From positions 94,488,001 through 94,552,000 of the forward strand of contig OZ024740.1 of NCBI GenBank assembly GCA_964016885.1: a stretch of 64,000 nt of DNA, given 5' to 3'. Position 1 is the first letter of the stretch, and every line of letters starts with the position of its first letter. The notes beneath the pieces were generated by a model that was given only the letters and a program-made list of their open reading frames with translations, searched no databases and had not been told where the DNA came from. The translations under genes and the position numbers were made by a program. This DNA comes from Eledone cirrhosa (taxonomy: Eukaryota). Positions 6,742-62,500 of the stretch are shown here, one piece after another.

Positions 6742-6801
6742 TTCCATTTACCAGTGGTTTCTTAAAAGCAAAAGGTTTTGCTTTCAATCCTCAGAATGAA
6801 A
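6742..6801 (-). ncRNA. Type-I hammerhead ribozyme
   Basis: Minus strand: tttcatt-CTGAGGA-ttgaaagcaaaa.cc.ttttgcttttaa-GAAA-ccactgg-TA-aatggaa. Confidence 0.85.
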
Positions 6802-8062: not shown

Positions 8063-8490
8063 ACGTACACATACACACATGCATACACATACACACACAC
8101 ATATACATGTGTGTATGTGTAAAGCTCAGTATTAGATAAGACAAATGAACCTTACATAAACGTATATATAGTAGTAAAGTAATAAAGCCATACAAGGCAA
8201 TTAATCCATTCACCAGAGGTTTCTTAAAAGCAAAAAAAGTTTCCTTCAATCTTCAGAATGAAATATACAAATATATACACACATACAGACACGCACACAC
8301 ACATATATATATATACATATATATATATATATGTACATATATATATATATATATATACAGACATATATACATACACACATATACACACACATACATATAC
8401 ATACATACATACACATATATATACATACACAAACATACACGTACACATATACATATATACACACAAAAATACATACACATACACATAGGT
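6905..8490. repeat. Compound (CA)n/(TA)n/(CATA)n microsatellite field
   Basis: Read directly; it produces the spurious YI/HT/CV ORFs. Confidence 0.95.
8205..8262 (-). ncRNA. Degenerate hammerhead (same family as 6742)
   Basis: Minus strand: ttcatt-CTGAAGA-ttgaagg...cttttaa-GAAA-cctctgg-TG-aatgga. The cleavage triplet is GUG, so it is probably inactive. Confidence 0.65.
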
Positions 8491-8653
8491 ATGTGAAGGG
8501 CAAAACAAAAAGAATATATGGGGTGGGGGGCCTAGAGGAGGTAAAAATATAAAGGGAGGTAAGGGAGAAAAAAATATTTTTTAAAAACAAGAGTACAGAA
8601 GGTAGAAGCAGCAAAATAAAAGCCGTAGCAAAAGTAAAGAGCAGAGAAGGAGT

Positions 8654-9172
8654 TCAAGGCGGTTGATTTATCGTAGGAGTGTCAATCCAGTTACAGATCA
8701 GATGCGATTTCAGATGAGGACAGCATCTGAAGATCTCAGTCTTAGAGTTAAGGCAAGCGGAAGTGTCTCTCAAGTTTAGCAAAATCCTATACTTTTCTGT
8801 GGTACACAAAGAACAATTCTTTGTGCCCCTTTGGTACTCCCTCGAATGGTCTAATATAGACCAATCAATAGAGTACGGGATATTACTATCCTTGAGATCC
8901 CATACCTTACTTGCGAGGGCCGTTGATGTTCGTTTATCTGAGTGTTTAAAAGAAGCGACATGTGAGTAAAATCTGGTTTTAAACCTGTCCTGGGTCATAC
9001 CGACATATCGCTCGCTTCTGGCTGGCTGGTTGTTGATAACTGGCGTTATTTTAGCCTCATAAACGACAGATTTTGTTTTACATTTACCCTGCAATGGGCA
9101 TTCATCCGGCTTCCTGCAACTGCATCCTGGATTTATCCTCGTACGGTTTGAACTGGTGATTTTGGATTTCAT
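8654..9172 (-). pseudogene. PLE GIY-YIG endonuclease domain
   Basis: CSCRKPDECPLQGKC...VVYEAKI...YVGMTQDRFKTRFYSHVASF...CSLCTTEK...CCPH. Confidence 0.9.
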
Positions 9173-9356
9173 GGATGGACAACAAGAGTAGCTGATCTTA
9201 ACTACATTCCTATTAAAAATCTTATAATATCTATGAATAGGAGGAAAATGTTTGTCTAATAGTTCAAGGAATTTCCTTCCTACATTAGTTTTGACATTTA
9301 GAGAGAAGGGGGGTGTGAACCAAATAATCTTCCTTTTCCTGTTATTATGGTTAGTT

Positions 9357-9790
9357 TTAGGGGGGGGGAATAGGTAAATAAGAAATATTTTCTGTAAAAC
9401 CGCTGTTCTTAAGGGCTTTATTATAATAAGGGGCGGCTTTATTAAAAATGTCTATAGACGAAGATAAAGTAGAAATCCTACGGCTAATGTTAGGAATAAG
9501 ATTATTAAAAACTATAGGGGGATGGCAAGACTCTTTGTGTATATACCTAAGATTTTCATTAGGTTTATGATAGGGTTTAAAAGAGGCAGTAAGTAGATCA
9601 AGATTAATATCAAGAAAGTTAGCATTAGTAAGGTTCGTATCTATAGTAATTTTAAGGTTAAGATTAGCAAAGGTACTAATTAAATCTTTACGGAATTTAT
9701 CAAGATTATGGCCATTGGTGGTATGAGAAACTGCTAATCCGTCATCACGGTATAAACCGATATTATGGGACGGAAATTTCTCTTTGAGAA
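9357..9790 (-). pseudogene. PLE RT C-terminal fragment
   Basis: Motifs GLYRDDGLAV, FLDINLDL and YIHKESCHPP. Confidence 0.88.
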
Positions 9791-10132
9791 AGGGTGCCAA
9801 CTTCACCGGCGGATGCATTCATGTATATATGTGTGTGTCCGCATGTATCTGTGTGTTTCTAAATATATTAATAACTCCCTCTGGTCGAGCAATCTTTGAA
9901 GTGTGGGGACAACTGGAAAGCTTCCATTACTCATACTTCTCGCCTTCTTCACTACCTCTTCTACGGCCTCGATATGAATACCCCCTCCGCCTCCGTGGTA
10001 TTTTCTTCGTGGTTATAAGAGGCTTAGCTCTGTTTCTCGACCGTTATGTCGCGTGACTATCTCCCCCTCCGCCTTTTGGGATTCTTTCTCACGTCGTGTA
10101 GACGCGTTCTTGAGACTAGTAACATGAGGTAC

Positions 10133-16334: not shown

Positions 16335-17754
16335 TATATCTAAGGCGGGTAAAGTTACCGAGAACCATGGACGAGTTCTCTCCAGCGGTCTCTGTCCCTC
16401 ATTATCGCTGCCATGTCCTGCATCTCCAACAGACCAGTGTCTGTCCTTAGGGCATCAACATACGTTAGCGTTGGTCTTCCTCTTCTAGTGTGTCCATGTA
16501 GGGGCTGCCAGAGGAGTACTGAGTGCAATATCAACTCTGGATGTCGGTGAGCATGTCCAGCTAAACTCAGTCTCCTCTGTGTCACTTTTGAGCTGATTTT
16601 GGGATGCTCCCTTACAGCTCTGAGTTTCTCATCCTCAGTGTATACTGATCAATGTTCAGAGCCATTCTCAGCATTCTCGTGTAGCGCCCATCCACCATCT
16701 GAGTGAGTTTCTTGGTCAGTGTCCAAATCTCAGACACATACAGCAGCACAGACTCCACTACAGCAATGAAGAGGCGGATTTTCAGGTCTCTACGAAGGTC
16801 CGACTTCCACACCGATCTCAAGCTGCGGCACGCCGCCCAGGCCCTGCTCTTCCTCTCAACCACATCATCTTCCGTATTCCCAATCTTTGCTCCCAAATAC
16901 AGGAAGTCCTCAACCAATTCCAGCGGCTTCCCGCCTTCATTAGTGATCCCCTCTGGCTTCTCAACATTCTCTACCAGATATTTTGTTTTAGCCTCATTCA
17001 TTCTCAGCCCCACACTCATCGACACAGTCTCAACATCCCGCATCAAATCCTCTGCCTCCTTTACTGTATTTGTCACCAAAATTATGTCGTCCGCAAATTC
17101 AGCATCCGATACCTTTTTCGCCCTAACTCTACTGCTCTGAGCCGGTGCTACAGTAAAGCCAGAGTCCTGGTGTTTCTCCAGTGCAAGGCGCATACAATAG
17201 TCTACCTCGATGATAAAAAGGTAGGGAGCCAATGTATCTCCCTGGAGCACTCCAGCCAGTATCTCAAAGAACTCTGTCATCCCACCAGGTGTAATGACTT
17301 GGGCTTTGGTGTTGCTGTAGAGCAGTGATATCAGGTCCACTATCCTCTTGGGGATTCCATAAGCCTGTAAGATCTTCATCAGGCAGTAACGGTCCACAGA
17401 ATCAAAGGCCTTCCTAAAGTCAATGAAAACCATGACCGCAGGAAGGCACTTTGCTCTAGCTACCTCTAATATCCTCCTCAGCATCAGGATGTGACTGGTG
17501 GTTGATCTATCCTCTCTGAAGCCGTTATGGTTGTCCCTGAGCTTCTTCTCCATCTTAGGCTGGATCCTGTTAAGAATCATCCTGCTGAGGGTATTTGCCA
17601 CAAGTGACGTCAGTGAGATCCCCCGGTAGTTGTTGGTGTTAGAGAGATCTCCCTTCTTTGAAACTGGGACGATGTTATTGATACTCCACTGATTCGGGGC
17701 AACTCCTTTCACCAGTGCCCCGTTTCAGAACCCCAGGATGATATCAAAATGATA

Positions 17755-19139: not shown

Positions 19140-20550
19140 ACCTAGCGAAGTATTTCTAATCAGGATTTGTACACCATACCCTACTCAAGAAGGGGGTTAT
19201 AGTTTGAGGAGAAATATCCGGGATTTCTTGAACTTAATATGGTCTGTTTCTGTTTTGCTGTGTTTTGTCGCAATGTTAAAGCGTGCAGGGCCAATTGTGG
19301 TGAAATAACTGTGCCGAATTGTTGTTATGATGCGCAACATTGTTGTTCGACGTGGGCGGAAAGCAGGGGACCCAAGCCTTGAGTGCAGTTTAAAGGTAAT
19401 GCCAACCTCATTTGGGCAATGCTGAAGGAATATTTTCCACATCATGCAGATAACATAATGCTCACGACGACGTTGGAGAGAATAATGTTTGCGTTTGTGT
19501 AGTCGACCCCAATATACAAGGCCTAGCATGCCACATATTTTTTCGTGATTGACCTTTGAGGAGCTTCAATGTTCACGATACTTTGTTTCGTGTGGGAAGA
19601 CCACAGTTGACAACAGTATTCAACGTGGGGATGGACAAAAGTGGAGAAGAGAATTATAATACTGTGGATATCTCTTGACTGCGGCGTTCTGAGTATCCAG
19701 GAACACATTCTGCAAGCTATGTCATGATTGCTGTTTATATGAGTGGTCCAGCTTTTGTCATTTTTCATAATTACTCCCACGTCTCTGATGTTGTTGGATG
19801 CCACAAGATTCTCAGCTGAATGAAGGGAGTAAGGGAGTTCCAGGTATTCCTGTTTTCCAATGGCTATTAACTTAAATGTATCCTCGTTCAGCAGCATATT
19901 GTTCTTTTCCGTCCATTGGATAATATCCAGTAGATCTGATTGGAGGCATATCCTGTCACCCACGCCTTGTATGACCTTATAGAGCTCGGAAATATCTGCA
20001 AAGATTTTTATGCTGTTGTTCTTGGGGATATCAGTAATGTCATTAGTATAGATAATGAAAATATGTGGGCCCAACAGAGTGCCTTGTATGTCACCACAAA
20101 TGATTTTGACTGGGCTGGATTTTACTCTTTCGACTACAACATATCGGGCTCTGTTTGACAGGAAACACTTGATCCACTGCAGCAACATTCCAGTAACACC
20201 AATGTTGTATAGTTTTCTCAGTAGAATGTTGGGATCAGCTCCGTCAAAAGCCTTGCTGAAATGAATGTAGATGACAGCAGTGTTGGGCCCTCTCTCCAAA
20301 CTCTCAAAATGCCATCAAAGTAATGCAGTAGCTGCGTTAGGCATTCCCTTTTATTACAGAATCAATGTTGGTTGGAGTTCATCAGATTGTTGCTTTCAAG
20401 AACGTGAGTTATTCGTGATCCCACCCCCTCTCAAATACCTTAATGATATCAGAGGTGAGTGTGATATCGGATGGTAATTCACAGCAAGGGATTTGTTTCC
20501 CTTTTTAAAATACTGGGATAACAGATTGGGATAATAAGTTTTCTGGTATA
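19140..20550 (-). mobile_element. Degenerate CR1/L2-group LINE RT fragment
   Basis: FKKGNKSLAVNYHPIS; VIYIHFSKAFD, LLQWIKCFLSNR, QGTLLGP..FIIYTND, KIFAD, FVHPHVEYCCQLWS. Confidence 0.88.
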
Positions 20551-22170: not shown

Positions 22171-22426
22171 GGCGTTTTGCTTAAGAAGGAAAAGCGATCG
22201 ATCGTTCAAGCTCTTAATCTTAGGATTGTAAACCCGACGCTCTTACCAGCAAGCAGCGCGTCTCCACTTGAGTATATATATATATATATATATACATATA
22301 TGAAGACAAACATAGAATATTCGAAAATATTCTGTATGTTTATAATAAACATTTTGAAGACCTAATCGCTATAGAATAGAATACGTCACGTATTACAATT
22401 TGAGATTCTCGATAAAAGCAAGGGAA

Positions 22427-22469
22427 GTAACCTACGCGTTTCATTCTTATTTGAAATCATCAGGATTAC
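22427..22469 (-). ncRNA. Type-I hammerhead ribozyme (canonical core)
   Basis: Minus strand: gtaatc-CTGATGA-tttc.aaataa.gaat-GAAA-cgcg-TA-ggttac. Stem I is extended by a 16-bp helix (22405-22420 with 22478-22493). Confidence 0.88.
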
Positions 22470-22727
22470 ATATCCAATGCTTTTATCGAGAATGACACAG
22501 CTAGAGACTTATAGAATACTTAGCTGTGTACAGGAACTGGTTTGAAAGAGCGGTTGCCGGTCCGGCAGAAATTAGAATTTGGATTTAATGCTCTGAAATA
22601 GCGATATATATGTGAAGACAAACATAGAATATTCGAAAATATTCTGTATGTTTATAATAAACATTTTGAAGACCTAATCGCTATAGAATAGAATACGTCA
22701 CATATTACAATTTGAGATTCTCGATAA

Positions 22728-22766
22728 AATCCTGATGATTTCAAATAAGAATGAAACGCGTAGGTT
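22728..22766 (+). ncRNA. Hammerhead, inverted copy
   Basis: aatc-CTGATGA-tttcaaataagaat-GAAA-cgcg-TA-ggtt. Confidence 0.82.
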
Positions 22767-23106
22767 ACTTCCCTTGCTTTTATCGAGAATCTCAAATTGT
22801 AATACGTGACGTATTCTATTCTATAGCGATTAGGCCTTCAAAATGTTTATTATAAACATACAGAATATTTTCGAATATTCTATGTTTGTCTTCACATATA
22901 TATCGCTATTTCAGAGCATTAAATCCAAATATATATATATATATATATATACTTACGTATATATAATATTGAGGCTACTATTTATAGTTATGTATGTACT
23001 ATACTATATACAACTATAAACAGGTAAGGTCAGTAATTTATTACTACCTTATTGCCAGTATGATAAATAGGTCAATGTAAGAACATCATTTGTTATACAT
23101 AGCAGT

Positions 23107-23487
23107 AATATAGAATACACAAGAATAAAAGCTATGTTAGCACATTTAATTGCTGACAATTGTTTCTTCCAAGCCTAGGCTTGGTGTCTTCGGAGAATTA
23201 TTAATAATTTACTAGACACTGTTGTATTATCTGTCACATGTGCTCCACCAAAAGCTTTTAATTTTAAAATGAATCTTGTTGTACAATTAAAGTATAACAT
23301 AATATATGTCGCATCCATGCAACACTGTTGTCCACAATATGTATCTGTATGATTTTCAGCGGAATAGGAGGCATATTATATGTACAAATATTATAAATAA
23401 TGTCCGAAGACACCAAGCCTAGGCTTGGAAAAACAATTGTCAGCAATTAATTGTTCTAATATAGCTTTGATTCTTGTGTATTCTATA

Positions 23488-23547: not shown

Positions 23548-23641
23548 ATCTCCAAAGAAATACAGTTTTTGGAAGCCGTAGCTATGGAAACACGGGAGGG
23601 CTAAAGCTCCCTGGTGATGTCAAGCAGAAGCATTGGAGTCA

Positions 23642-23685
23642 ACCATCTATGCATTTCAGGCTTAACTGGCCTTCGTCAGGACGGT
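23642..23685 (-). ncRNA. Type-I hammerhead ribozyme (canonical)
   Basis: Minus strand: accgtc-CTGACGA-aggc.cagttaa.gcct-GAAA-tgca-TA-gatggt. Confidence 0.9.
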
Positions 23686-23994
23686 CCCTCGTATCGTTTG
23701 CGACTGCTGGACTAGAAGACAGCTAAGAATATATACTTTTCTTGTCTGTGTAAATGAGGTGATTAATCTCATTTGCATATGGAGTTGCATAAGTTGGAAA
23801 AAGGAAAAAGAAATAGGATTTCTCTTCAAGCAAATCTTTCTACATATTTATAAATATTTTGTATCTCCAAAGAAATACACTTTCAGGAAGCCGTAGCTAT
23901 GCAAAAAACGGGGTGTGTGTGTGTGTGTGTGGAGGGGGGGGGGGGGGGGGGGGCTAACGTCTTCTGGTGATGTCCAGCAGAAGCAAGGGGGAAA

Positions 23995-24038
23995 ACCGTC
24001 TATGCATTTCAGGCTGAACTGCCCTTTGTCAGAACGGT
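23995..24038 (-). ncRNA. Degenerate hammerhead (G8A)
   Basis: Minus strand: accgtt-CTGACAA-agggcagttcagcct-GAAA-tgca-TA-gacggt. Confidence 0.65.
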
Positions 24039-24724
24039 CCCTCCCACCGCTTGAGACTGAGGGACTAGAAAACAACTGATAATATATTCTTTTCTCTTCT
24101 GTGTAAATGATGTGAAAAAGCTATGCTTGAAGCGTTTTGGCTATATGTCAACATGCATTTATCTGGGATTGATTACTTACACATAGACCCACTTGAACAT
24201 ATTTACTATTTTATATTGTATGATACATCATACGCTATACTATACTATATATAATGTACCATAATGCACCATATTATACTACATTATACTTTATTATTAT
24301 ATTATTATATTTTATTATCTTATTATACTTTCCATCACTTAATATACTATCCTTCCTAGTTATGACAATTACTTTACCTAACTATATTTATCCTAGTTAT
24401 TTCCGTATATTTTATATTTCTTTATTTATATTTACCTAACGCCTCCATAAAACACAACTCAACATATATTTTTTGAATCCCTTTTTAAACTTCACTCCAC
24501 CATCTACATTCCACTATCAATACAACAATTCCTTTTCTTCATAGGTTCTTCATAGTAATTCTATTTTTAACATCCTTCAACGATTCCTTTCAAAAGATCA
24601 TGACCTTCATTAAAGTGAGTTATATTTCATCTTAACATCATATGGCAAAACACCATTTGATTGGTTTGTTCTTCAGCGACCTCAATAAGGTCATATAACT
24701 CAATTTACTATTGATTTTGAATAA

Positions 24725-26580: not shown

Positions 26581-26766
26581 TCTGATATATATATATATAT
26601 ATATTGTTATACTTTGGGAGGGTCATGTTGCCAATAAGAAACACACGCACCAGTTGCTTTCACTTCAATTTATTATATATTTATATATTTATAAATTTAC
26701 AAATTTACAAACCTATACATTTCTGGTTGGTTGGTTGGTTCCACAACCAGATAGTTGTTTATATAT

Positions 26767-26811
26767 AGTCATAGTCCTTTCGTCACACACTCTGTGACCT
26801 CTTCAGTGACT
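26767..26811 (-). ncRNA. Hammerhead ribozyme
   Basis: Minus strand: agtca-CTGAAGA-g-gtcaca.gagtg.tgtgac-GAAA-ggac-TA-tgact. Confidence 0.8.
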
Positions 26812-26905
26812 GTATAGGAGCAAATTTTGGAATAGAATAGAAAGAACTAGGAACAAGGCTAATAGAATAAACTCATGGTATGATAGCAATAAATACCAGA
26901 GTGTA

Positions 26906-27487
26906 ATGTTCATCAATACAACCCTTAGAGGCGAACTAGCCTACAAATTTAGAAAGGCCCTAAATAAACATAATCTCAATATTAAGATAGTAGAAAGACC
27001 TGGTACCTCCGTAAAAACACTTATTAGCAAGACATACCCGTTCCACAGACCCTCATGTATAGATAAGAAATGTATAACCTGTAAAATAAGCCCCCATATT
27101 AACTGTAAAACTAGAAATGTAGTGTATAGCATAAGATGTACTGAAGGACAATGTAGAAACAAAAATATAGTGTACATAGGTGAGACAGCTCATAGTATAG
27201 GGGAACGAATAAATGAACACTGGCGAGACCTCCAAGATAATAAAGAATCATCTGTGCTCTACCAACCTGCTAAGATAGAACACAGTGGTAGATTAGAGAG
27301 CATAGAAATAAAAATAGAATCCACACACAGAAAATACGCAATGTTTAGGCAAATTACAGAGGCAGTAAGCATAAAAGAATTAAAACCAAAATTAAATAGA
27401 AAATATGAGTTAACAGCAGCATCACAACTTACAATTAAGGACAAAATGAAAACACACACACACATAGAACAAACAACTTACAATTAA
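26906..27487 (+). pseudogene. PLE GIY-YIG endonuclease (C-terminal fragment of the PLE ORF)
   Basis: CIDKKCITC...NCKTRNVVYSIRC...YIGETAHSIGERINEH...RQITEAVSI...PKLN. Confidence 0.9.
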
Positions 27488-27553
27488 GGACAAAATGAAA
27501 ACACACACAAAATGAAAACACACACACACATAGAACAAACAACCAACCAACAA

Positions 27554-27584
<31 letters not shown>

Positions 27585-27724
27585 ACAAATAGAAAAATGA
27601 ACACAAACACACACAGACACCCGGATGTGGCGCTTGCGCAAACTGAGCACACAACACACACACAGAAACAAAATGGCGTAGGATAGAAGAAAGGAAAGGC
27701 ACAGAAACGAAGAAAGGAATCCCC

Positions 27725-27769
27725 AGTCACTGAAGAGGTCACAGGGTGTGTGACGAAAGGACTATGACT
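27725..27769 (+). ncRNA. Hammerhead ribozyme
   Basis: agtca-CTGAAGA-g-gtcaca.gggtg.tgtgac-GAAA-ggac-TA-tgact. Confidence 0.8.
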
Positions 27770-27989
27770 ATATATAAACAACTATCTGGTTGTGGAACCA
27801 ACCAACGAACCAGAAATTTATAGGTTTGTAAATTTGTAAATTTATAAATTTATAAATATATAATAAATTGAAGTGAAAGCAACTGGTGCGTGTGTTTCTT
27901 ATTGGCAACATGACCTTCCCAAAGTATAGCAATATCGGTTTCAACACACGATTTCAGATAAAGAATCTTGCTAAACAAATTCAGAAACG

Positions 27990-28019
<30 letters not shown>

Positions 28020-28023
<4 letters not shown>

Positions 28024-39694: not shown

Positions 39695-39700
<6 letters not shown>
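39020..39700. repeat. Inverted arms (~39020-39200 and 39485-39700) around a microsatellite; related sequence at 52330-52570
   Basis: ataatattacagtttgcctatcttgactcaa pairs with ttgagtcaagataggcaaactgtaatattat. Confidence 0.75.
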
Positions 39701-39749
<49 letters not shown>

Positions 39750-39750
<1 letters not shown>

Positions 39751-40031
39751 AAGTAATTCCGTCGGAAAAGTCCAGGAAAAAAGTGTGCTCTATGTAGGTA
39801 ACATAGCTTAATAGTTATGTAATAAACAACATAAGGCAATTATTCCATTTACCAGTGGTTTCTTAAAAGCAAAAAATGTTGCTTTCATTCCAAAGAATGA
39901 ATAAATCCTGGTCTGTTTATTGAATTTAAACAGACCAGGATTTTTTCATTCTGAGGATTGAAAGCAAAATTGTTTGCTTTTAAGAAACCACTGGTAAATG
40001 GAATAATTGACTTAAGTTGTTTATTACATAA

Positions 40032-41782: not shown

Positions 41783-41866
<84 letters not shown>

Positions 41867-44800
41867 TGCTCCCTCGCTCTCTCTGTTTCTCCTACTTTCT
41901 TTAGCCCCCTCTGTCATGTCAGTTAACTCTTCGTGATACTTCCACTCACTCTCTCACCGTTTCTCCTCTTCTCACTTCACCCCGTTCGCGACGAAATCGT
42001 TTTCTCTCTTTCTCACATTTGAATTCGATCCTGAAAGGTCTATTTTCTAAGCGCTCATATATTCACCTAGCTTATGCTAACAGAATAACTATGAAGCTTG
42101 TTCCCTTCCTTCTACGGTTAGCTATCCTCTTTGTTGTTATCTTGTTTCACTCGCTTTGCGCGTTTTAATTGTCCTAATAATTATAATTTAGTTATTATTG
42201 CACCGACGTGAGGTATATGATTTTTAATGCAATGAAATATCTATGATCGTCGGCAAATCACTGATGAGGGACTTATTTTATTACATGTTATCCATGTGCA
42301 ACCAGCAGTATTCTTCTCCCCATTTTTTCACATATATTTACCTACTACGATTATGTTTTGTTCTCTCTCTCTCTCTCTCTCTCTCTTACTGCTCCCTCGC
42401 TCTCTCTGTTTCTCCTACTTTCTTTAGCCCCCTCTGTCATGTCAGTTAACTCTTCCTCACACTTCCACTCACTCACTCACCGTTTCTCCTCTTCTCACTT
42501 CACCCCGTTCGCGACGAAATCATTTTCTCTCTTTCTCACATTTGAATTCGATCCTGAAAGGTATATTTTCTAAGCGCTCATATATTCACCTAGCTTATGC
42601 TAACAGAATAACTATGAAGCTTGTTCCCTTCCTTCTACGGTTAGCTATCCTCTTTGTTGTTATCTTGTTTCACTCGCTTTACGCGTTTCAGTTGTCCTAA
42701 TAACTTAATTTAGTTATTATTGCACCGACGTGAGGTATATGATTTTTAATGCAATGGAATATCTATGATCGTCGGCAAATCATTGATGAGGGACTTATTT
42801 TATTACATGTTATCCATGTGCAACCAGCAGTATTCTTCTCCCTATTTTTTCACATATATTTACCTACTGCGATTCTGTTTTTTTCTCTCGCTCTCTCTCT
42901 CTTACTGCTCCCTCGCTCTCTCTGTTTCTCCTACTTTCTTTAGCCCCCTCTGTCATGTCAGATAACTCTTCCTCACACTTCCACTAACTCACTCACCGTT
43001 TCTCCTATTCTCACTTCACCCCGTTCGCGACGAAATCATTTTCTCTCTTTCTCACATTTGAATTCGATCCCGAATGGTCTTTTTTCTAAGCGCTCATATA
43101 TTCACCTAGCTTATGCTAACAGAATAACTATGAAGCTTGTTCCCTTCCTTCTACGGTTAGCTATCCTCTTTGTTGTTATCTTGTTTCACTCGCTTTACGC
43201 ATTTTAATTGTCCTAATAACTTAATTTAGTTATTATTGCACCGACGTGAGGTATATGATTTTTAATGCAATGAAATATCTATGATCGTCGGCAAATCACT
43301 GATGAGGGACTTATTTTATTACATGTTATCCATGTGCAACCAGCAGTATTCTTCTCCCCATTTTTTCACATATATTTACCTACTGCGATTCTGTTTTTCT
43401 CTCTCTCTCTCTCTCTCTCTCTTACTGCTCCCTCGCTCTCTCTGTTTCTCCTACTTTCTTTAGCCCCCTCTGTCATGTCAGTTAACTCTTCGTGACACTT
43501 CCACTCACTCTCTCACCGTTTCTCCTCTTCTCACTTCACCCCGTTCGCGACGAAATCATTTTCTCTCTTTCTCACATTTGAATTCGATCCTGAAAGGTCT
43601 TTTTTCTAAGCGCTCATACATTCACCTAGCTTATGCTAACAGAATAACTATGAAGCTTGTTCCCTTCCTTCTACGGTTAGCTATCCTCTTTGTTGTTATC
43701 TTGTTTCACTCGCTTTACGCGTTTTAATTGTCCTAATAACTTAATTTAGTTATTATTGCACCGACGTGAGGTATATGATTTTTAATGCAATGAAATATCT
43801 ATGATCGTCGGCAAATCACTGATGAGGGACTTATTTTATTACATGTTATCCATGTACAACCAGCAGTATTCTTCTGCCCATATTTTCACATATATTTACC
43901 TACTGCGATTCTGTTTTTTTTCTCTCTCTCTCTTTCTCTCTCTTACTGCTCCCTCGCTCTCTCTGTTTCTCCTACTTTCTTTAGCCCCCTCTGTCATGTC
44001 AGTTAACTCTTCGTGACACTTCCACTCACTCTCTCACCGTTTCTCCTCTTCTCACTTCACCCCGTTCGCGACGAAATCATTTTCTCTCTTTCTCACATTT
44101 GAATTCGATCCTGAAAGGTCTTTTTTCTAAGCGCTCATATATTCACCTAGCTTATGCTAACAGAATAACTATGAAGCTTGTTCCCTTCCTTCTACGGTTA
44201 GCTATCCTCTTTGTTGTTATCTTGTTTCACTCGCTTTACGCGTTTTAATTGTCCTAATAACTTAATTTAGTTATTATTGCACCGACGTGAGGTATATGAT
44301 TTTTAATGCAATGAAATATCTATGATCGTCGGCAAATCACTGATGAGGGACTTATTTTATTACATGTTATCCATGTACAACCAGCAGTATTCTTCTGCCC
44401 ATTTTTTCACATATATTTACCTACTGCGATTCTGTTTTTTTTCTCTCTCTCTCTCTCTCTCTTACTGCTCCCATTGCTCTCTCTGTTTCTCCTACTTTCT
44501 TTAGCCCCCTCTGTCATGTCAGTTAACTCTTCCTCACACTTGCACTCACTCACTCACCGTTTCTCCTCTTCTCACTTCACCCCGTTCGCGACGAAATCAT
44601 TTTCTCTCTTTCTCACATTTGAATTCGATCCTGAAAGGTCTTTTTTCTTAGCGCTCATATATTCACCTAGCTTATGCTAACAGAATAACTATGAAGCTTG
44701 TTCCCTTCCTTCTACGGTTAGCTATCCTCTTTGTTGTTATCTTGTTTCACTCGCTTTACGCGTTTTAATTGTCCTAATAACTTAATTTAGTTATTATTGC

Positions 44801-45476
44801 ACCGACGTGAGGTATATGATTTTTAATGCAATGAAATATCTATGATCGTCGGCAAATCACTGATGAGGGACTTATTTTATTACATGTTATCCATGTGCAA
44901 CCAGCAGTATTCTTCTCCCCATTTCTTCACATATATTTACCTACTGCGATTCTGTTTTTTTCTCTCTCTCTCTCTCTCTCTCTCTTACTGCTCCCTCGCT
45001 CTCTCTGTTTCTCCTACTTTCTTTAGCCCCCTCTGTCATGTCAGTTAACTCTTCCTCACACTTCCACTCACTCACTCACCGTTTCTCCTCTTCTCACTTC
45101 ACCCCGTTCGCGACGAAATCATTTTCTCTCTTTCTCACATTTGAATTCGATCCTGAAAGGTCTTTTTTCTAAGTGCTCATATATTCACCTAGCTTATGCT
45201 AACAGAATAACTATGAAGCCTGTTCCCTTCCTTCTACGGTTAGCTATCCTGTTTGTTGTTATCTTGTTTCACTCGCTTTACGCGTTTTAATTGTCCTAAT
45301 AACTTAATTTAGTTATTATTGCACCGACGTGAGGTATATGATTTTTAATGCAATGAAATATCTATGATCGTCGGCAAATCACTGATGAGGGACTTATTTT
45401 ATTACATGTTATCCATGTGCAACCAGCAGTATTCTTCTCCCCATTTTTTCACATATATTTCCCTACTGCGATTCTG

Positions 45477-45552
<76 letters not shown>

Positions 45553-47045
45553 TGCTCCCTCGCTCTCTCTGTTTCTCCTACTTTCTTTAGCCCCCTCTGT
45601 CATGTCAGTTAACTCTTCGTGACACTTCCACTCACTCTCTCACCGTTTCTCCTCTTCTCACTTCACCCCGTTCGCGACGAAATCATTTTCTCTCTTTCTC
45701 ACATTTGAATTCGATCCTGAAAGGTCTTTTTTCTAAGCGCTCATATATTCACCTAGCTTATGCTAACAGAATAACTATGAAGCTTGTTCCCTTCCTTCTA
45801 CGGTTAGCTATCCTCTTTGTTGTTATCTTGTTTCACTCGCTTTACGCGTTTTAATTGTCCTAATAACTTAATTTAGTTATTATTGCACCGACGTGAGGTA
45901 TATGATTTTTAATGCAATGAAATATCTATGATCGTCGGCAAATCACTGATGAGGGACTTATTTTATTACATGTTATCCATGTACAACCAGCAGTATTCTT
46001 CTGCCCATTTTTTCACATATATTTACCTACTGCGATTCTGTTTTTTTTCTCTCTCTCTCTCTCTCTCTTACTGCTCCCATTGCTCTCTCTGTTTCTCCTA
46101 CTTTCTTTAGCCCCCTCTGTCATGTCAGTTAACTCTTCCTCACACTTGCACTCACTCACTCACCGTTTCTCCTCTTCTCACTTCACCCCGTTCGCGACGA
46201 AATCATTTTCTCTCTTTCTCACATTTGAATTCGATCCTGAAAGGTCTTTTTTCTTAGCGCTCATATATTCACCTAGCTTATGCTAACAGAATAACTATGA
46301 AGCTTGTTCCCTTCCTTCTACGGTTAGCTATCCTCTTTGTTGTTATCTTGTTTCACTCGCTTTACGCGTTTTAATTGTCCTAATAACTTAATTTAGTTAT
46401 TATTGCACCGACGTGAGGTATATGATTTTTAATGCAATGAAATATCTATGATCGTCGGCAAATCACTGATGAGGGACTTATTTTATTACATGTTATCCAT
46501 GTGCAACCAGCAGTATTCTTCTCCCCATTTCTTCACATATATTTACCTACTGCGATTCTGTTTTTTTCTCTCTCTCTCTCTCTCTCTCTCTTACTGCTCC
46601 CTCGCTCTCTCTGTTTCTCCTACTTTCTTTAGCCCCCTCTGTCATGTCAGTTAACTCTTCCTCACACTTCCACTCACTCACTCACCGTTTCTCCTCTTCT
46701 CACTTCACCCCGTTCGCGACGAAATCATTTTCTCTCTTTCTCACATTTGAATTCGATCCTGAAAGGTCTTTTTTCTAAGTGCTCATATATTCACCTAGCT
46801 TATGCTAACAGAATAACTATGAAGCCTGTTCCCTTCCTTCTACGGTTAGCTATCCTGTTTGTTGTTATCTTGTTTCACTCGCTTTACGCGTTTTAATTGT
46901 CCTAATAACTTAATTTAGTTATTATTGCACCGACGTGAGGTATATGATTTTTAATGCAATGAAATATCTATGATCGTCGGCAGATGAGGGACTTATTTTA
47001 TTACATGTTATCCATGTGCAACCAGCAGTATTCTTCTCCCCATTT

Positions 47046-47050
<5 letters not shown>
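40925..47050 (+). repeat. Tandem array of ~520-bp units (11 full plus one partial), flanked by (TA)n
   Basis: tcacatttgaattcgatcc starts at about 40925, 41441, 42013, 42536, 43052, 43572, 44093, 44613, 45135, 45699, 46219 and 46741; the internal (CT)n varies in length. Confidence 0.97.
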
Positions 47051-47091
<41 letters not shown>

Positions 47092-47217
47092 AAAGTTATA
47101 TTTAAATTGTTGGGTTACAACTAGTAAATATTTATAACTGATATAAAAGCACTCAACAAGTATTTGGAGTATATTTACGATATTAAATAAATGGAAAATA
47201 TATTTATAAAACAATAT

Positions 47218-47284
47218 TTATTTCATTATATATATTTCAGTGATATCATATTAACAATATGTTATGCCTTCTTCAGACAAAATA
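47218..47284 (-). ncRNA. Type-I hammerhead ribozyme
   Basis: Minus strand: tattttgt-CTGAAGA-aggcataacatatt.gtt.aatatgatatcact-GAAA-tatata-TA-atgaaaa. Confidence 0.7.
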
Positions 47285-48599
47285 CAATATAGACAGTTTT
47301 ATAGATAAATAGATTTGACATACCGTTCAACATCGACTTGTATTTGAAAAAGTTGATTTGGCAGTGAAAAATTGTAAACAGAAAGAAAGAAAGAAAGAAA
47401 GAAGGAAAGAAAGAAAGAAAACGAAGAAAAAGAAGAAAAAGAAGAAATGCATGCAACAAAATAGAGAGATGGAAAAATAGATAAAGAGAAGAACTTCATG
47501 TAAAGAAACAGAGAGAGATATATAGAGAGAGGAAATAGATAGAGATAGATAGATATAGAGAAAAGTAGGTAGTTGAACGACGTATCAATGATACATTTAT
47601 TTATTTATTTATTTATTTAGCTCTAGTATTAAAGTAAGGGAGATATATGTGGTTAGGAAAGAAACCAGCCGTTATATAGAGAGAAAAATGAAAAGTAACC
47701 AGACATAGGCGAGGCAGAATTTAAAAACCCTATGTTTTAATGTAGAAATATTAGTTCGTATAAAAACCAGGCACTATAATGTAAATATCAGTATTCCTGA
47801 CGCGTATCTATAATGTGTGAAAGTAATGATCTTATGTCTAGTTTTAAAAAATTCATATGTTTATATGATAACTACAAACATCGATGTGAATTTACGTGAT
47901 CAACTCTGCAAACCCTTATTTCACACGGAGAACATTCTCATTGTGCTATAAAAATTTAAGTATACATATATGTGTATATATACACATATATATAGAGTCT
48001 ATATTAATTTTAACAATACTATTCTTGTCTTTACTCTACATGATTATCTATCAAGCAGAAATAGAGGACAGATTTCAATATATTAATTAAAATATCAGAA
48101 ACAAAAACAAAAAATAATAATAATAATAATAATAAACAAATAAATAAAATAGAAAACTAAAAAATATTACATATTAAAAATGAAAATATTAAAAATATTA
48201 AAAAATATTAAAATAATAAAAATAAAAAACATAATATGCCACGCAAATCGACCACAAAGATCAACCCTTCAAAATTAATTGACAATATATTGCCAAGTTC
48301 ATTATAAGCATCAGAGTCGAAAACAGATAAAGCTAAACATTATTTACCAAATCGCGTCTAGCAGAAATCATTTCAAAAGTTTAGGATGCCCATGTGGTCT
48401 ACATATGTTCTTATATTTAATATAGAAGTTTATCTAGTGTAACGTTTATTCGATATATTTGGAGCATCAACTTTTAGGGAAGTTTAATTTTTCATGAAGA
48501 ATGTTTAAAATAAAAAAAAAAATAAAAATAAAAAGAAGAATAAAAAGAAGAAATCGAAAGATTTATCGGCTAGTTTCCCAAATAATTACAAATCAAACT

Positions 48600-50720
48600 T
48601 AATATACTACATTTTAAATTTAAATTTATATTTAAAAGTTGAGTTCAATCTATGTTTGCAGCAACTGAATAAATTTGTCCGTAGATTAAGGGAATTTTTA
48701 GATTTTAGTATAAAGAATATCTCCTCCGCGCAGAGGTCACATGTCTCAGAGGATGAATTAAAAGGAATCCCTCTTGGGACTATATTCCAAGCCGTCGAAT
48801 ATCTAACGATATCTTGCCTAGGTTGCCAGAGTACGCCTGATAGTGCTGTTGAAGATTTTTTGCTTGGATCTGTAAAAGAATTCTTGTGGTTATTATAGCG
48901 AAGTTTAAATTCCGTCGATGTGGAACCGACGTAGTTAAAAGAATTAGAGTCCGTTTTAACATTACAGTTGTATATTATATTTTTAACTAAGCAGTTGTTA
49001 TTTAACGGACATTTAGATCTATCTCTACAGTTACATTTGTTAACTTGTATATTATTTATGCTATTATCGCTAGGTTTTAAGTTCTTATTATTTATTCTAT
49101 TAATATTTTGTGCTAAATTTTTGGTGGATGAGTAGGTTAATTTTATAGTATGTCTATTGAAAATTGAGTGATACCTATGTGTTCTAGGGAAGCGATTATC
49201 AAGAGCTTTAAAAAATAGTTTAGCGATGTGGGTTTTAATGTTTAGTGAGAAAGGGGGGGAAAACCATATTATGTTCCTAGTTCTATTTCTTTTTTGGCTT
49301 TTGGAATTATTGTAATGCTTTCTATTATAGTTGTTAAGGTTGTGGCCGTATTAAAATAGTTGTTATTTTGTTTAGTTTGTCTATCATTATCTATGTACCT
49401 AATCGTATCACTATATCCTGCTCTAGCTAACGCTTCATTGTAGTACTGGGCTTTTTCGTCGAAAATCTTTCTATTAGACGAGATTCTAGAGATACGTTTT
49501 TGAACAGAGTTTACTATAGTGTTTTTGACAGATCTGGGGTGGTTAGAGTTTTAGCTGACATAGTTTAAGTTTTCATTCAACTTGTGAAATGGATAGTGAA
49601 GACATGTGTTGAGATTTAATGTTATATCTAGGAAATTGACTATTCTATGGTTGTTCTCAATTTCTATTTTTAGATTAAAGTAATTAAAAAATTGTGTAAT
49701 TTGTTTTCTTTTTCTATTTAGTTCAGAGTTATTATTATCAATAAGTAAAAGCATGTCATCTCTATATAAACCTCCGGTAGTACCAGGTATTTTCCTATGT
49801 AGCGAATTGATTAAAAATAAGCCCACAAGGTCAGTTACCTGAGCTGAGTCGGATGATCCCATAGTAATGTCAAAATTGCTATCTCTATCTGCTCTGGTCC
49901 ATAGTTGGTCTTTAAATTCTATCAATGTTTTCCTAGCCGATAATATAATGTGCATTTCATTGCTAGTTAGGTCTGTATGTTTGAATGCGTAATTTAGTGC
50001 CTTATTTAGTAGATTAGAGGTAATAGAAGAATAATAGTTAGCAATATCAAGTTGAATAAACTTATTATTATTGTTATATTTAATTTGCTTAAACCACTCA
50101 ACAACTTCTCCAGTTCCCTTCCACAAGCTCAGGTTAGGTAAACAATCCAAGTTTTTAATTTGCTGTATCACCCTGTCAAGAATGTTTTTGCTTAATTTGC
50201 CCAGGTCCGATTTTGATGGTGCGATCAATCTAACTGGCAAGTCATTTTCAAAATTCCTTTTGTGATCTTTCATACTGATCTTCGGTTTCCTGGGCACGAA
50301 AGGTTGTGTTCTGTTCTCAATTTCCAACTCGTGCATTATACAAGATGCTTCAACATTCATTTTCTCAAGCTTGGCCTTATCTGCTACCTTGTACTTTTTC
50401 CTCAGTTCCTTCAGTATGAGGCCATTATACATGTCTTTCTGCACTCCATAGAGGTTGTTGGTCTTGTCAGATTTCACCAAGATCTTCTCAGTTTTCTCTA
50501 AGCTCTCAATATTATCCTTAATGCCTTTCAGATATTCCTGGCCTTTGAAGTTTCTCTTGAATTTGACCCCTTGTATGATAGAAATTATATCGTTTTCAAA
50601 GTCAGATAAAAGTTTGTTAGGGGGTGGATTTCTTTTAGATTTGAAAACTTTCTTTAAGTCCGAGACATTTTCATTTATATTAGATTTATCAAAGTGGAAT
50701 GCTCGCCACCAGGTGCACAA
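48600..50720 (-). pseudogene. PLE polyprotein (RT plus GIY-YIG) with a stop at 49551 and a downstream frameshift
   Basis: IQLDIANYYSSI, DITMGSSDSAQVTDLVG, LYRDD and NFLDITLNL, followed by WFSPPFS, CNCRDRSKCPLNNNC, YVGSTSTEFKLRYNNH and CDLC. Confidence 0.92.
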
Positions 50721-52570
50721 ATATATCGAATAAACGTTACACTAGATAAACTTCTATATTAAATATAAGAACATATGTAGACCAAATGGGCATCCTAAAC
50801 TTTTGAAATGATTTCTGCTAGACGCGATTTGGTAAATAATGTTTAGCTTTATCTGTTTTCGACTCTGATGCTTATAATGAACTTGGCAATATATTGTCAA
50901 TTAATTTTGAAGGGTTGATCTTTGTGGTCGATTTGCGTGGCATATTATGTTTTTTATTTTTATTATTTTAATATTTTTTAATATTTTTAATATTTTCATT
51001 TTTAATATGTAATATATTTTAGTTTTCTATTTTATTTATTTGTTTATTATTATTATTATTATTATTTTTTGTTTTTGTTTCTGATATTTTTATTAATATA
51101 TTGAAATCTGTCCTCTATTTCTGCTTGATAGATAATCATGTAGAGTAAAGACAAGAATAGTATTGTTAAAATTAATATAGACTCTATATATATGTGTATA
51201 TATACACATATATGTATACTTAAATTTTTATAGCACAATGAGAATGTTCTCCGTGTGAAATAAGGGTTTGCAGAGTTGATCACGTAAATTCACATCGATG
51301 TTTGTAGTTATCATATAAACATATGAATTTTTTAAAACTAGACATAAGATCATTACTTTTCACACATTATAGATACGTGTCTCATTCAGGAATACTGATA
51401 TTTACATTATAGTGCCTGGTTTTTATACGAACTAATATTTCTACATTAAAACATAGGGTTTTTAAATTCTGCCTCGCCTATGTCTGGTTACTTTTCATTT
51501 TTCTCTCTATATAACGGCTGGTTTCTTTCCTAACCACATATATCTCCCTTACATTAATACTAGAGCTAAATAAATAAATAAATAAATAAATGTATCATTG
51601 ACACGTCGTTCAACTACCTACTTTTCTCTATATCTATCTATCTCTATCTATTTCCTCTCTATATATATCTCTCTCTGTTTCTTTACATGAAGTTCTTCTC
51701 TTTATCTATTTTTCCATCTCTCTATTTTGTTGCATGCATTTCTTCTTTTTCTTCTTTTTCTTTGTTTTCTTTCTTTCTTTCCTTCTTTCTTTCTTTCTTT
51801 CTTTCTGTTTACAATTTTTCGGTCGTGCCAGTTATTAAGCCATGCGTGAGATCGCACGCATTTGCGATAGATCAGCCTGCCGGTTCTAAATCCAAGGTTT
51901 TGCTGTATAGGATATATTGGTAAAAAAAGTCCAGTTTTGGACTTGACTGGGGTGGCATATTGTGTCTCTCGCTATTATCCCCTCCTCTCACCAATTCCAA
52001 GTTCACACGCGACTGGTTAAGTACTAAGGTCTGTCCCCTCTTTGTTTGTTGTTATATGTAGTAGGGGTCGTTTCGAGCTTAGATGGTGGTCGTATTATCC
52101 ATGTTGCTTCTATAGCCCGTCAGTTATGCACATTCAAGATATATCACGGTGTGTATGCAGATATTTGCGGGTATGGTCCGGCCTCTATGCTATCTAAAGG
52201 ATCTCTCTTGTGGCATTTTCAAATTCGCATCCGAATTTGAAAATGCCACAAGAGAGAAACTTATTTGGGTTTTGAAATTCAAATTTATCTGCGGAACAGG
52301 TTTGGATTTTGAAATTAAAATTTCTCCAGGTATCACGGCTATTTGCCAATCTGGGTTTGTTTTTATTGATTTATTATTTTAAAACTAGACAGGCAAAGTA
52401 TATTTTATTTGAATTAGTTTATTTCATTCTAGCAAACTTCGTCTTTTGCAATACAAACACTTTGGTGTTTATCATATATTAATTTATATTAACTTGTATT
52501 TCTCGGCTCAGAAATAATTCTTTCTTTGAGCTAATTAATTGTAAAGGACTGTTTGAGTTTATAACTCTGA

Positions 52571-59519: not shown

Positions 59520-62500
59520 ACATGGCTGAGCCACACACCCCTAGCGATATCTCTGCTGTCGTGCGACAATGTCGTAGAAGTTGAGAGAAGCGCTACACGA
59601 AATTAACACAAATTGATAACACAAACACCACCACAAACAATGTAAACAAAGACACCAATGATACCAATGAGAATTCTAATTTTGAAAAAAATGACAGTAA
59701 CAGCGACAACGAAAATACAGATAACAAAAAAAAATGACAAATGCAACGACAATATCAACATCACTAACATGAAAACAAATAGCGTCAACACCAACAGCAA
59801 CAATACCAACTGCCACGAGAACAACGGTGGCAACAAAGACAACAATGATAACAGCGACAGTGATAACAACAACAACAACAAAAACAACGACAATGACAAC
59901 ACCCCAACGAAAACAAGAAGAACACTTTCGCTGCGACAGCAGCATAAAAGAGACAATGCTTCAACATGGACCTCTCAAACAAAGATGAAAAGTTGGCCCA
60001 GGCATGGAAGCTTATCAAGCAAGAGCAAACCTGGGCCAACCTAACTGTCCCGGTAGAAGCTATTGTGGCAGTGGAGCGCAGAACGGTGCATTATAGATGC
60101 ATCTCAGCACAAACCAAAAGGGCAGCTTTAATCCCACAAGAAGATGTCGAAGTCGCGCTGAGGTGCATCAGAGAAGACACCGAATACATAGAGAGGGGCA
60201 GACAGCCGGCACCATTTCGGTGTTGTTCAAGTCAGAAACCCTTGCTATGAAACACGCTATGTTTCCTTGCAGACTCCTCCCACATGGGAAAAAGAACGGC
60301 ACGTCTCCGCATTCCCAGAATCCCACCTAGACTTGACATGTGGTGGCTTCTGGGATGTGTGAGTATGGAGGGGACGGATACCGTCTCTATAGAAGTGACC
60401 AGAACGGCCAGAGAGGAATGGTCTGGGGTTGACCTGGAGATCCTTCACCAGATCAGGCCCGAGAATGTGAAGACAATCCCGGATCACATCCGCCTTCAGA
60501 ATGAGACGGTCATTCACATTGTGACCGAAGGCAAAAGGCCGCAGTGTTTTGTTTGTGGGAAAAAAAAACATTTGCGAGCCTTCTGCCCTCAACCGCTGAA
60601 AGAGGTAAGGGGTCGAAATTCTCCACTGCTGCCGACGCCTGGGCGAGGACCACAACCAAGACCAGCAGCGGCAAAACCAACAACAACAACACCAACAGAA
60701 AGACCACCACCAACATTGACCACCCAGGGGGGAAAAGAGGAAAGCTGTCAAATACCCCCCACACACACACACACACACAAAAAAAATACACACACCAATA
60801 AAACCATAAACATACACACAGACACACTTGCAGAGACAGACTCCTCATCTACCAGTATTGAAGATAAGGCAAAACCCAAATCCCCAAAATACAAAAAGGA
60901 AACACTAAAAGAAATAAAATCTAATAAGCACAAAATCACACAATAAAAAACGCAGACACCACCCACGCAAACATCTCTCCAATAACACCAACATCAACAC
61001 CACCATCACCATCACCAGAATCCCTCAAACGCAAACAACCTAAACAGATGCAAGAACAAATATACGCACAAACGTCTGAAACCACAGACACCGCACACAG
61101 AGCAAATACAGACACAACCGAAACAACACCACCAAAACCATCACCACCACAGCCACGCACAAAATACAATAACTCCAACAAAACGTACAAAACTTCGTGC
61201 TCGTCAGGAGGGCCAACAAGGAACTGATGGCCCTCGTAGCACGAAGTGAAAATATACAAAAAGATGGGGACATTTATAAATCGAGCACATTTCGCGTGCC
61301 GGAAGATTTGTTTCTGGTGCGAATGTCGCTCGATTTATACAAATAATTACGAGACTGCTTTCCTAGGGACGTGGGAACCCCGAATGTAAAACCCACTTCA
61401 AGAATTTTAAAGGGGTTCCCAAAAGAAACCCCACCAACTATGGAGGTCGAATAACCCGACCATCACAAGAGCCCGGAAGGTAAGTACACCTTTCCTCTCT
61501 CTCTTTTTAACCTGCCAACGTGGCCGTATTAAGAGTAGGATGTTTAAATGTTCGAGGCCTGGGGTCGTGCTGGAAGCAGGGTTAACTGCTCAACGACCTC
61601 AGGTCTCTAGAAATGGATGTAATTGCCGTCAGCGAGACCAGGTTACGACACGCGCGCACTAGCCGCCATTTTCGACGACTATCAGATCTTTGCATATGTT
61701 AGTCGGCCGGGAATGGGAGGCGGGGTGGCACTGCTGTTTAGGAAAGGCCTGGTACTCGAGGTAAGGTCGATTTTCCGGGACCCGGACGCGAAGTTGGTGA
61801 TCCTGGATGTGAACAATAATGAAGGTGGTGCCTTTAGACTGGTGGCCGTCTATGCTCCTACTGGGGAAGGACGGCCGGACATCATAAGACGCCTGGAAGA
61901 CTTTTTGAGTAAGTCTCGCCCTTTACAGTTAGCGGGGGACGGGAACGGCATCTTAGACGCACGCTGGGACTGTGTGGGTGCATCCGATAGTAGCGGGAGG
62001 TGCAAAAGCCTCAAGAACCTGATCAGCCAATTCCAAATGTCTGACAGGTACGGACTAGTTTTCTCTAATGCGCCAGTGTAGAGCTGGACTAACCGCATAG
62101 AGTCATCTATATCGTAGATTGCCAGTGTATTCATTAGGAAAATAGACATAAATAGTGTAAGCTGTCCACGTTTTGAGACGGTCGCCTATTCAGATCACAT
62201 GTTTGGGATCTGTATGGTTGACCTAGATAAGACGCGTAGGTTAGGACCTGGTTACTGGAAGCTAAACATGTCATTTCCGGCAGGTAAAGCTTACAGGGAC
62301 AAGGTCAACAATTTAGTTAAGAAAAAGTTGACAGGGGGAGTCGTCAACAATAGATAGTGGGGGCTCTCAAAAGAGAGATTAGAGTAATGTCGATAGAGTT
62401 TAGCAAAGAAGTAGCGATAGAGAAAAATAGAAAGGAGGGGGAGTTGGTAGATAAGATAGACGAGGCTATTGGTAGTGGCATTGCAGCTGACGTGCTAGTG

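Follow-up and report, generated by a model that had tools for sequence, protein, structure and literature searches.

Animal non-LTR retrozymes have been described as tandem repeats of AT-rich units of about 300 bp, each without an open reading frame (ORF) and each with a type I hammerhead ribozyme, in genomes where Penelope-like elements (PLEs) are co-resident (available text of PMC7229834 and 10.64898/2026.07.22.740005). The accessible accounts of animal retrozymes describe tandem organisation only, the word 'inverted' occurring 0 times in that of PMC7229834, and their PLE origin has been argued from co-occurrence and from similarity to PLE pseudo-LTRs (pLTRs), the mechanism being left open in the accessible part of 10.64898/2026.07.22.740005. 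For PLEs, the available sections of PMC8557442 describe an inverted, 5'-truncated arm and a tail of 30-40 bp at one end, with (TA)n targets in the Hydra clade. In the accessible account of Frangieh et al. 2024 (PMC11167929), the Poseidon PLE of Anolis has in vitro two adjacent internal start sites downstream of its hammerhead, the tail is the stretch between the two start sites of the reverse transcriptase (RT), and the RT, a predicted dimer, cuts and extends both strands, with no strand preference for the start site and no need for target homology. PLE ends have so far been explained by self-priming, proposed for PLE inverted repeats in the available text of PMC3846280, or by nuclease resolution, and both the mechanism of retrozyme mobility and the origin of the one-sided PLE tail are open questions in the literature.

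A family of this known kind was found in Eledone cirrhosa, whose genome is TA-rich and 3.0 Gb in size, through a window of 64,000 nucleotides (the whole stretch of DNA analysed; contig OZ024740.1, positions 94,488,001 to 94,552,000). Its unit (312 bp, 34% GC) falls within the range given for retrozymes (tandem units of about 150-450 bp, GC below 50%), but the family is unlike the published ones in that its arms lie head-to-head, its outer ends are fixed at two sites, A and B, far from the ribozyme cleavage site, its target is (TA)n, and no pLTR homologue occurs in the five PLE families examined. From EN+ PLEs of the Hydra clade, as set out in the available sections of PMC8557442, it differs in its lack of an RT or GIY-YIG ORF, its unit of 0.3 kb and its arms of up to tens of units; from Anolis Poseidon, in that its ends pair A with B and the AU repeat of site A matches the target. 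The non-autonomous PLEs of Chlamys, such as MRC1, are likewise non-coding, multicopy in head-to-tail order and made by PLEs, but according to the accessible part of PMC8557442 they resemble their autonomous partner at the 3' end and belong to a clade without canonical hammerheads. Head-to-head retrozyme arrays and a counted rule of one site per end were absent from the open literature searched (papers outside subscription, without supplements), in which the head-to-head A/B architecture is therefore undescribed for retrozymes. This fixed rule of one short and one long end, together with the size of the superfamily, is the main point of the present analysis, and both were missing from an earlier note made from the window sequence.

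The window copy consists of 1.39 units followed by an inverted copy of 203 nt, with (TA)n on both sides. Its features are given below, unit positions being counted from the cleavage site and the ends at sites A and B being termed short and long, respectively.

22273..22301, no strand: left (TA)n target tract (TRF and sequence); its last bases overlap the AU repeat at the element's site A.
22296..22729, minus: left arm, 434 nt or 1.39 units, running from unit position 16 (5') to site A (3', short end), with element-specific sequence ending at 22301.
22292..22603, minus: a single 312-nt period of the non-coding unit.
22627..22664, minus, repeated at 22315-22352: twin conserved hairpins just 5' of site A, the second with a UUCG loop here.
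22405..22493, minus: perfect 16-bp extension of stem I, 22493-22478 pairing with 22420-22405.
22427..22469, minus: sole complete type I hammerhead; stem I is 22469-22464 with 22432-22427, and the core is 22463-22457.
22577..22611, minus: internal copy of the 'tail' segment, comprising site A (AU repeat, 22611-22604), an invariant 13-nt motif (22602-22590) and site B (22577).
22728..22729, no strand: head-to-head arm junction with 2-nt microhomology.
22728..22930, plus: right arm, 203 nt, running from unit position 278 (5') to site B (3', long end); contains a truncated hammerhead (22732-22762) and the tail motif (22905-22917).
22930..22951, no strand: right (TA)n target tract (sequence).

The unit is without ORFs, as the earlier note held, the longest that start with ATG being of 34 aa (sense) and 22 aa (antisense). 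The spacing given there as 310 bp is in fact 312 bp, with copies starting at 22301 and 22613, and only 1.39 units are present. The near-identical inverted copy that it reported stands (22728-22930, 98-99% identical), but the start of this copy right at the hammerhead is attributable to chance, because junctions are spread across the whole unit in 31 loci of the family; nor is the supposed 'fold-back end' a local fold-back, the inverted copy being the family's insertion signature. One complete hammerhead (minus strand) and one truncated hammerhead (plus strand, with the outer 2 pairs of stem I gone) are present, fewer than the two consecutive complete hammerheads by which Li et al. define an 'active' copy and which are found, in that number or more, at many loci of the family. 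With a single complete ribozyme the window copy would release no monomer by itself, and it is likely a dead end. A MITE-like short element with long inverted termini, of high copy number by read depth, lies nearby (23104-23470).

For the 312-bp family 42 insertions were mapped, of which 34 consist of two head-to-head arms, nearly all in (TA)n, and 8 are single-armed. Arms end outward at one of two sites: A, at unit position 137-141, has an 8-nt AU repeat matching the target, and element-specific sequence stops there at 132-133; B is at 162-173. The sites are about 30 nt apart, 133-168 nt downstream of the cleavage site. In 31 of the 42 insertions an antisense arm, a junction and a sense arm follow one another with one A end and one B end, and 3 more have one irregular end; A+A or B+B combinations number 0 among the 42. 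TA adjoins 61 of 65 A or B ends, and a target T replaces the adjoining C at 22 of 31 A ends; target-site duplications are unreadable in such a (TA)n target. As these 42 loci had been chosen by score, samples in genome order were tested also. The first 20 loci of sister families on contig C1 comprise 15 with A+B ends, 1 irregular and 4 single-armed. With exact end patterns for the 310- and 311-bp families, 1,253 ends of type A and 1,006 of type B were identified, and all 54 adjacent end pairs in the first 218 Mb of C1 are A+B (24 and 30 by orientation; P about 2e-17 under independent site choice), a count from which unpaired ends (46 A, 24 B) whose partners missed the exact patterns were left out. 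The single apparent A+A span in this sample proved to be two neighbouring A+B insertions. Among 13 two-arm loci of the oldest family, 11 have one B end and none has two; one locus (L131) ends near A on both sides, and one is irregular. The one-sided tail has been noted qualitatively for PLEs; counted here, the rule of one short and one long end holds for all 54 adjacent pairs, all 31 regular pairs and all 9 pairs of a coding PLE described below.

The exact ribozyme core occurs in 124 copies genome-wide, in 312-bp steps, and tandem arrays of the 312-bp family reach 19 units per locus; L028, for example, has runs of 11 and 8 complete hammerheads. The DNA search yielded 450 candidates, of which 40 were scored. 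Private differences amount to 113 in 47,418 bases (0.24%), and 223 unit pieces hardly vary in the hammerhead core. The counts exclude a distinct 92% piece in L053, alignment pieces shorter than 22-30 nt and, in variant calls, TA-tract positions. Two gapped motifs taken from the unit's conserved part have 18,038 and 21,081 matches in the genome, with 0 in reversed controls, indicating a superfamily of about 20,000 related units with periods of 310-320 bp, which would total about 6 Mb. Sister families are 94% or about 60% identical to the 312-bp family, at least five subfamilies of similar age coexist, and for the oldest family there are at least 2,469 candidates, about 91% identical. The unit was recovered as one closed-loop contig in runs X3 (342 nt) and X6 (340 nt), a shape that a tandem repeat yields as well, the kind of run not being on record. 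No contig with an empty insertion site was present among four sequencing runs of uncertain host DNA content, and a sigma-70 promoter scan, with a bacterial model unsuited to an animal, gave matches at chance level.

The hammerhead (core CUGAUGA...GAAA...GUA, minus strand, 22463-22433) is of type I, with GUA at 22435-22433 and predicted cleavage between 22433 and 22432. Canonical type I features that it retains are C3-A9, G12-A14, A15.1-U16.1, the NUH triplet, the 6-bp stem I and a short palindromic stem III (2 bp, 6-nt palindrome), whereas the canonical G10.1-C11.1 closing pair is replaced by U10.1.U11.1 and stem II has 3 bp instead of 4 (4 bp in the 293T subfamily). The ribozyme called canonical in the earlier note is not fully so, and in a local scan with Rfam Hammerhead_HH9 (RF02275; gathering cut-off 52) it scores 20.1 bits, sister families scoring 24-30 bits. 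An Rfam scan of the whole window gave 113 matches, all below cut-off, nearly all to simple repeats and none to a hammerhead. According to the accessible parts of two reports, U10.1.U11.1 is a natural variant that keeps some activity (PMC3088659), and animal type I hammerheads that act as dimers typically have a short palindromic stem III (PMC4209133). In the predicted minimum-energy fold (-35.6 kcal/mol, versus -19.3 kcal/mol for the constrained catalytic monomer) the GAAA core is hidden.

The 6-bp stem I does continue into the perfect 16-bp helix reported earlier, and this extension is stable (z-score -7.0, with 0 of 200 shuffles equally stable), but it is not distinctive, since all sister families share an extended stem I, and all nine units compared have a helix of 13-25 bp and differing sequence at the same position. 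The MAFFT alignment misplaces this helix, and register-free counts of compensatory pairs within it are valid only for L053 (6/16). Stems II and III covary across families, C3-G8 becoming U3-A8 in the 316-bp group, and compensatory changes preserve the ribozyme and the hairpins between families that are about 60% identical. The twin hairpins and the 13-nt motif near the insertion end are conserved across sister families, where the second loop is GCAA or GCCA; the hairpins are a candidate RT-binding signal.

Other hammerhead repeats were noted also. A repeat at 23594-24122 of the window (minus strand; two copies 353 bp apart, 80% identical) ends in (TA)n and matches the superfamily profile weakly. 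Hammerhead-like cores that adjoin (TA)n at 6794, 11346, 18969 and 39951 are probably solo pLTRs, and a small head-to-head pair with unequal ends lies at 39700-40030. The genome contains at least two more tandem hammerhead families, of about 500 bp and about 430 bp, one of which includes a (TA)n tract; they are represented at L033:3100-4150, L111, L056:3650-4480, L059:7900-8800 and L119:5100-5600.

It is considered probable that this element is a young non-coding retrozyme for which the RT/endonuclease of a PLE, probably Hydra-type, cleaves the target and uses its two DNA ends as primers on a single retrozyme RNA. The inner junctions of 31 loci are spread over the whole unit, and 24 of them overlap by 0-5 nt. 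A cleaved linear monomer was rejected as the template: arms run through the cleavage site, and over 569 crossings just one inner end out of 126 is found at 5 nt or less from it. Arm haplotypes are discordant at 1 of 31 loci, through a private change, versus a mean of 18 and a minimum of 11 when arms are shuffled; both arms cover a derived allele at 12 loci, and the one that differs does so by a private change. At L028, L031, L043, L114, L230, L234 and L236, locus-private alleles are fixed in every unit of both arms, extending over up to 25 units, versus single-unit differences of 0.035-0.24%, and such fixation points to a bottleneck of one unit, as a circle would give. At L232 both arms contain, from the outer end, two units of one subfamily and then another, a mirrored order from which it follows that both arms took one template path; a multimer, or a joint template switch, fits this locus better than a monomer circle. 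These sequence comparisons favour a single template for each insertion. Arm length is not a pure measure of the RT, because alleles present in some units only (9 of 36 loci, and L227) indicate later duplication or conversion, and higher-order duplication is visible in the longest array, an arm of 46 units.

The main rival keeps the same two-site priming by a PLE but takes an uncleaved linear multimer as the template, with a weak or dispensable ribozyme and no role for circles. It would account for the mosaic mirrored in both arms of L232, and it accords with the U.U pair of stem II and the inactive minimum-energy fold, as well as with the independence of the Anolis PLE in vitro from hammerhead cleavage (available text of PMC11167929) and with the cleavage of only 1 of 9 Xenopus retrozyme dimers (accessible part of 10.64898/2026.07.22.740005). 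A linear multimer does not, however, provide the one-unit bottleneck required by private alleles fixed over up to 25 units of both arms, nor does a dispensable ribozyme sit well with a core and stems conserved through compensatory changes; recurrent inner junctions number 0 in the 31 family loci, and the one recurrent junction pair in a sister family is located on a 16-bp inverted repeat. This rival is accordingly thought rather unlikely, though it deserves to be kept in mind.

Priming of each DNA end on a separate RNA, with the choice of site set by the asymmetry of an enzyme dimer, would make strand displacement unnecessary, and the agreement of haplotypes could reflect a single source locus expressed at a time. 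Separate RNAs are nevertheless hard to reconcile with alleles that are private to a locus yet present in both its arms, with the mirrored order at L232 and with arms that remain unmixed while at least five subfamilies of similar age coexist, and this possibility appears quite improbable. Less credible still is a fold-back, in which the second arm is copied from the first by self-priming (the model in the available text of PMC3846280): palindromic junctions are reported for rotifer PLEs and the L031 junction is a 17-nt palindrome, but that is 1 of 31, arm 5' ends lie within 20 nt of each other at 4 of 31 junctions versus 4.1 expected by chance, either arm may be the longer (the right in 14 loci, the left in 16), and the outer ends are unlike, A and B, instead of matching.

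The priming of both ends by a PLE enzyme, the reading preferred here, agrees with the insertion features of PLEs, which the 312-bp family shares: a head-to-head truncated arm in 34 of 42 insertions, a tail at one end and a (TA)n target. Young Hydra-type PLE families with intact ORFs of 714-785 aa are present in the genome. The coding 785-aa PLE has the RWK, DKT and CxCx5C motifs of the Hydra clade, and among 10 head-to-head pairs fetched, all 9 with both ends found combine a short end with a long one, at a distance of 115 nt, and lie in (TA)n. The retrozyme thus carries the integration signature of the resident PLEs. Without an RT or GIY-YIG ORF between pLTRs, it is not itself an autonomous PLE.

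No pLTR matching the unit was found by BLAST or a profile HMM of 7 units in five PLE families, a small part of those present, whose measured tails are about 60-115 nt long versus about 30 nt in the retrozyme. The candidate partners considered (the 745-, 785- and 714-aa families, an older family and the family at 26.6-28 kb of the window) were rejected, having other ribozymes and tails. That the unit might be a mere pseudo-LTR of a coding PLE is suggested by the inverted arm, the tail and the (TA)n target, all PLE features, and by L024 and L123 (L024:2498-4812 and L123:2600-4964), where retrozyme arms are joined in sense to PLE sequence without a TA tract. This is most unlikely, since up to 46 units without ORFs occur in one arm, and since among 286 motif copies in 167 stretches a PLE ORF lies directly upstream only at L024, where the PLE belongs to another family with its own ribozyme. 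The rule that the earlier note set as its refutation, a unit always at the terminus of a coding PLE, does not apply at the roughly 100 insertions inspected, none of which has a coding PLE attached apart from the two ambiguous joins, which may be template switches or later deletions; the joins to PLE sequence at L024, L107 and L123 are ambiguous single cases. With 124 exact cores, 0.24% private divergence and tandem arrays, this supports the earlier proposal of a young non-LTR retrozyme family mobilised by PLE machinery. Amplification as a DNA satellite, or an assembly artefact, has in its favour only the higher-order duplication in the longest array and is scarcely believable for dispersed loci that have two fixed, unequal ends in (TA)n and junctions at random positions, and whose rule is also followed by a coding PLE.

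Several PLEs and other retroelements were noted besides. The 785-aa PLE forms full-length tandems at 3.6-kb spacing as well as head-to-head pairs (L167/L168, L173/L174, G000:C22:12045920-12054654), and this coding element too may be copied from a circle. In the window, a frameshifted Hydra-type PLE of the young 745-aa family (47050-50741, minus strand) has a ribozyme at 47276, its long end in (TA)n and a tail of about 90 nt. A fragment at 8237-9818 (minus strand) belongs to the very young 714-aa family, of which dozens of copies are 100% identical over 198 aa and the 3' region is mostly simple repeats. A 5'-truncated PLE (GIY-YIG end) at 26601-28020 has inverted pLTRs with hammerheads at 26806 (minus) and 27730 (plus) and a tail of about 60 nt on the right side only. 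Remnants of another PLE and of several LINE-type RT/endonuclease elements are found at 184-1824, 16612-17724, 19523-20314 and 60251-63646, and blocks that recur at intervals of about 1.6 kb and show TC tracts and a strong strand skew at 41787-46612.

The ends, their pairing rule, the junctions, the haplotypes and the conserved folds are established at the level of sequence, and a mechanism may be proposed around them. Multi-unit arrays would be transcribed and their hammerheads would cut as dimers, as the palindromic stem III suggests; the monomers would then be ligated into circles, by analogy with the retrozymes in the available text of PMC7229834, some templates probably remaining multimers. 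An RT dimer would bind the hairpin and tail region, one DNA end priming at A, aided by pairing of TA with the AU repeat, and the other at B. Both cDNAs would be extended in rolling-circle fashion, the strand begun at B displacing the one begun at A, until their 3' ends pair through microhomology and start second-strand synthesis; the RTs of PLEs are not known to have RNase H. Long arrays would later expand as satellites. In the twin priming of L1 attributed to Ostertag and Kazazian, two DNA ends are likewise said to be primed on one RNA, giving head-to-head arms joined by microhomology, but the arms reportedly derive from different stretches of a linear RNA, with a second site that varies, whereas both starts of the retrozyme are fixed within about 30 nt and the same sequence is copied many times.

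More generally, PLE integration may be an obligate coupled double priming, in which one dimer on one RNA, in retrozymes a circle made by the ribozyme, elongates both ends of the broken DNA as a tandem rolling-circle pair from two fixed sites, a proposition for which the arguments appear evenly balanced. With hundreds of young, countable insertions, fold-back is rejected, a strict rule of one site per end is found and a single template is indicated. The model can be tested directly with a 312-nt RNA, a (TA)n target and the intact ORFs of resident PLEs. Builders of RNA-templated insertion tools would take an interest in a protein that copies a small circle into long tandem cDNA at the two ends of a break. 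If true, coupled double priming would account for the inverted pLTR of all EN+ PLEs, as well as for their one-sided tail and their partial tandems; the superfamily of 20,000 copies would be its genomic record, and for the first time an animal retrozyme would be linked to PLE enzymes through the chemistry of its insertion.
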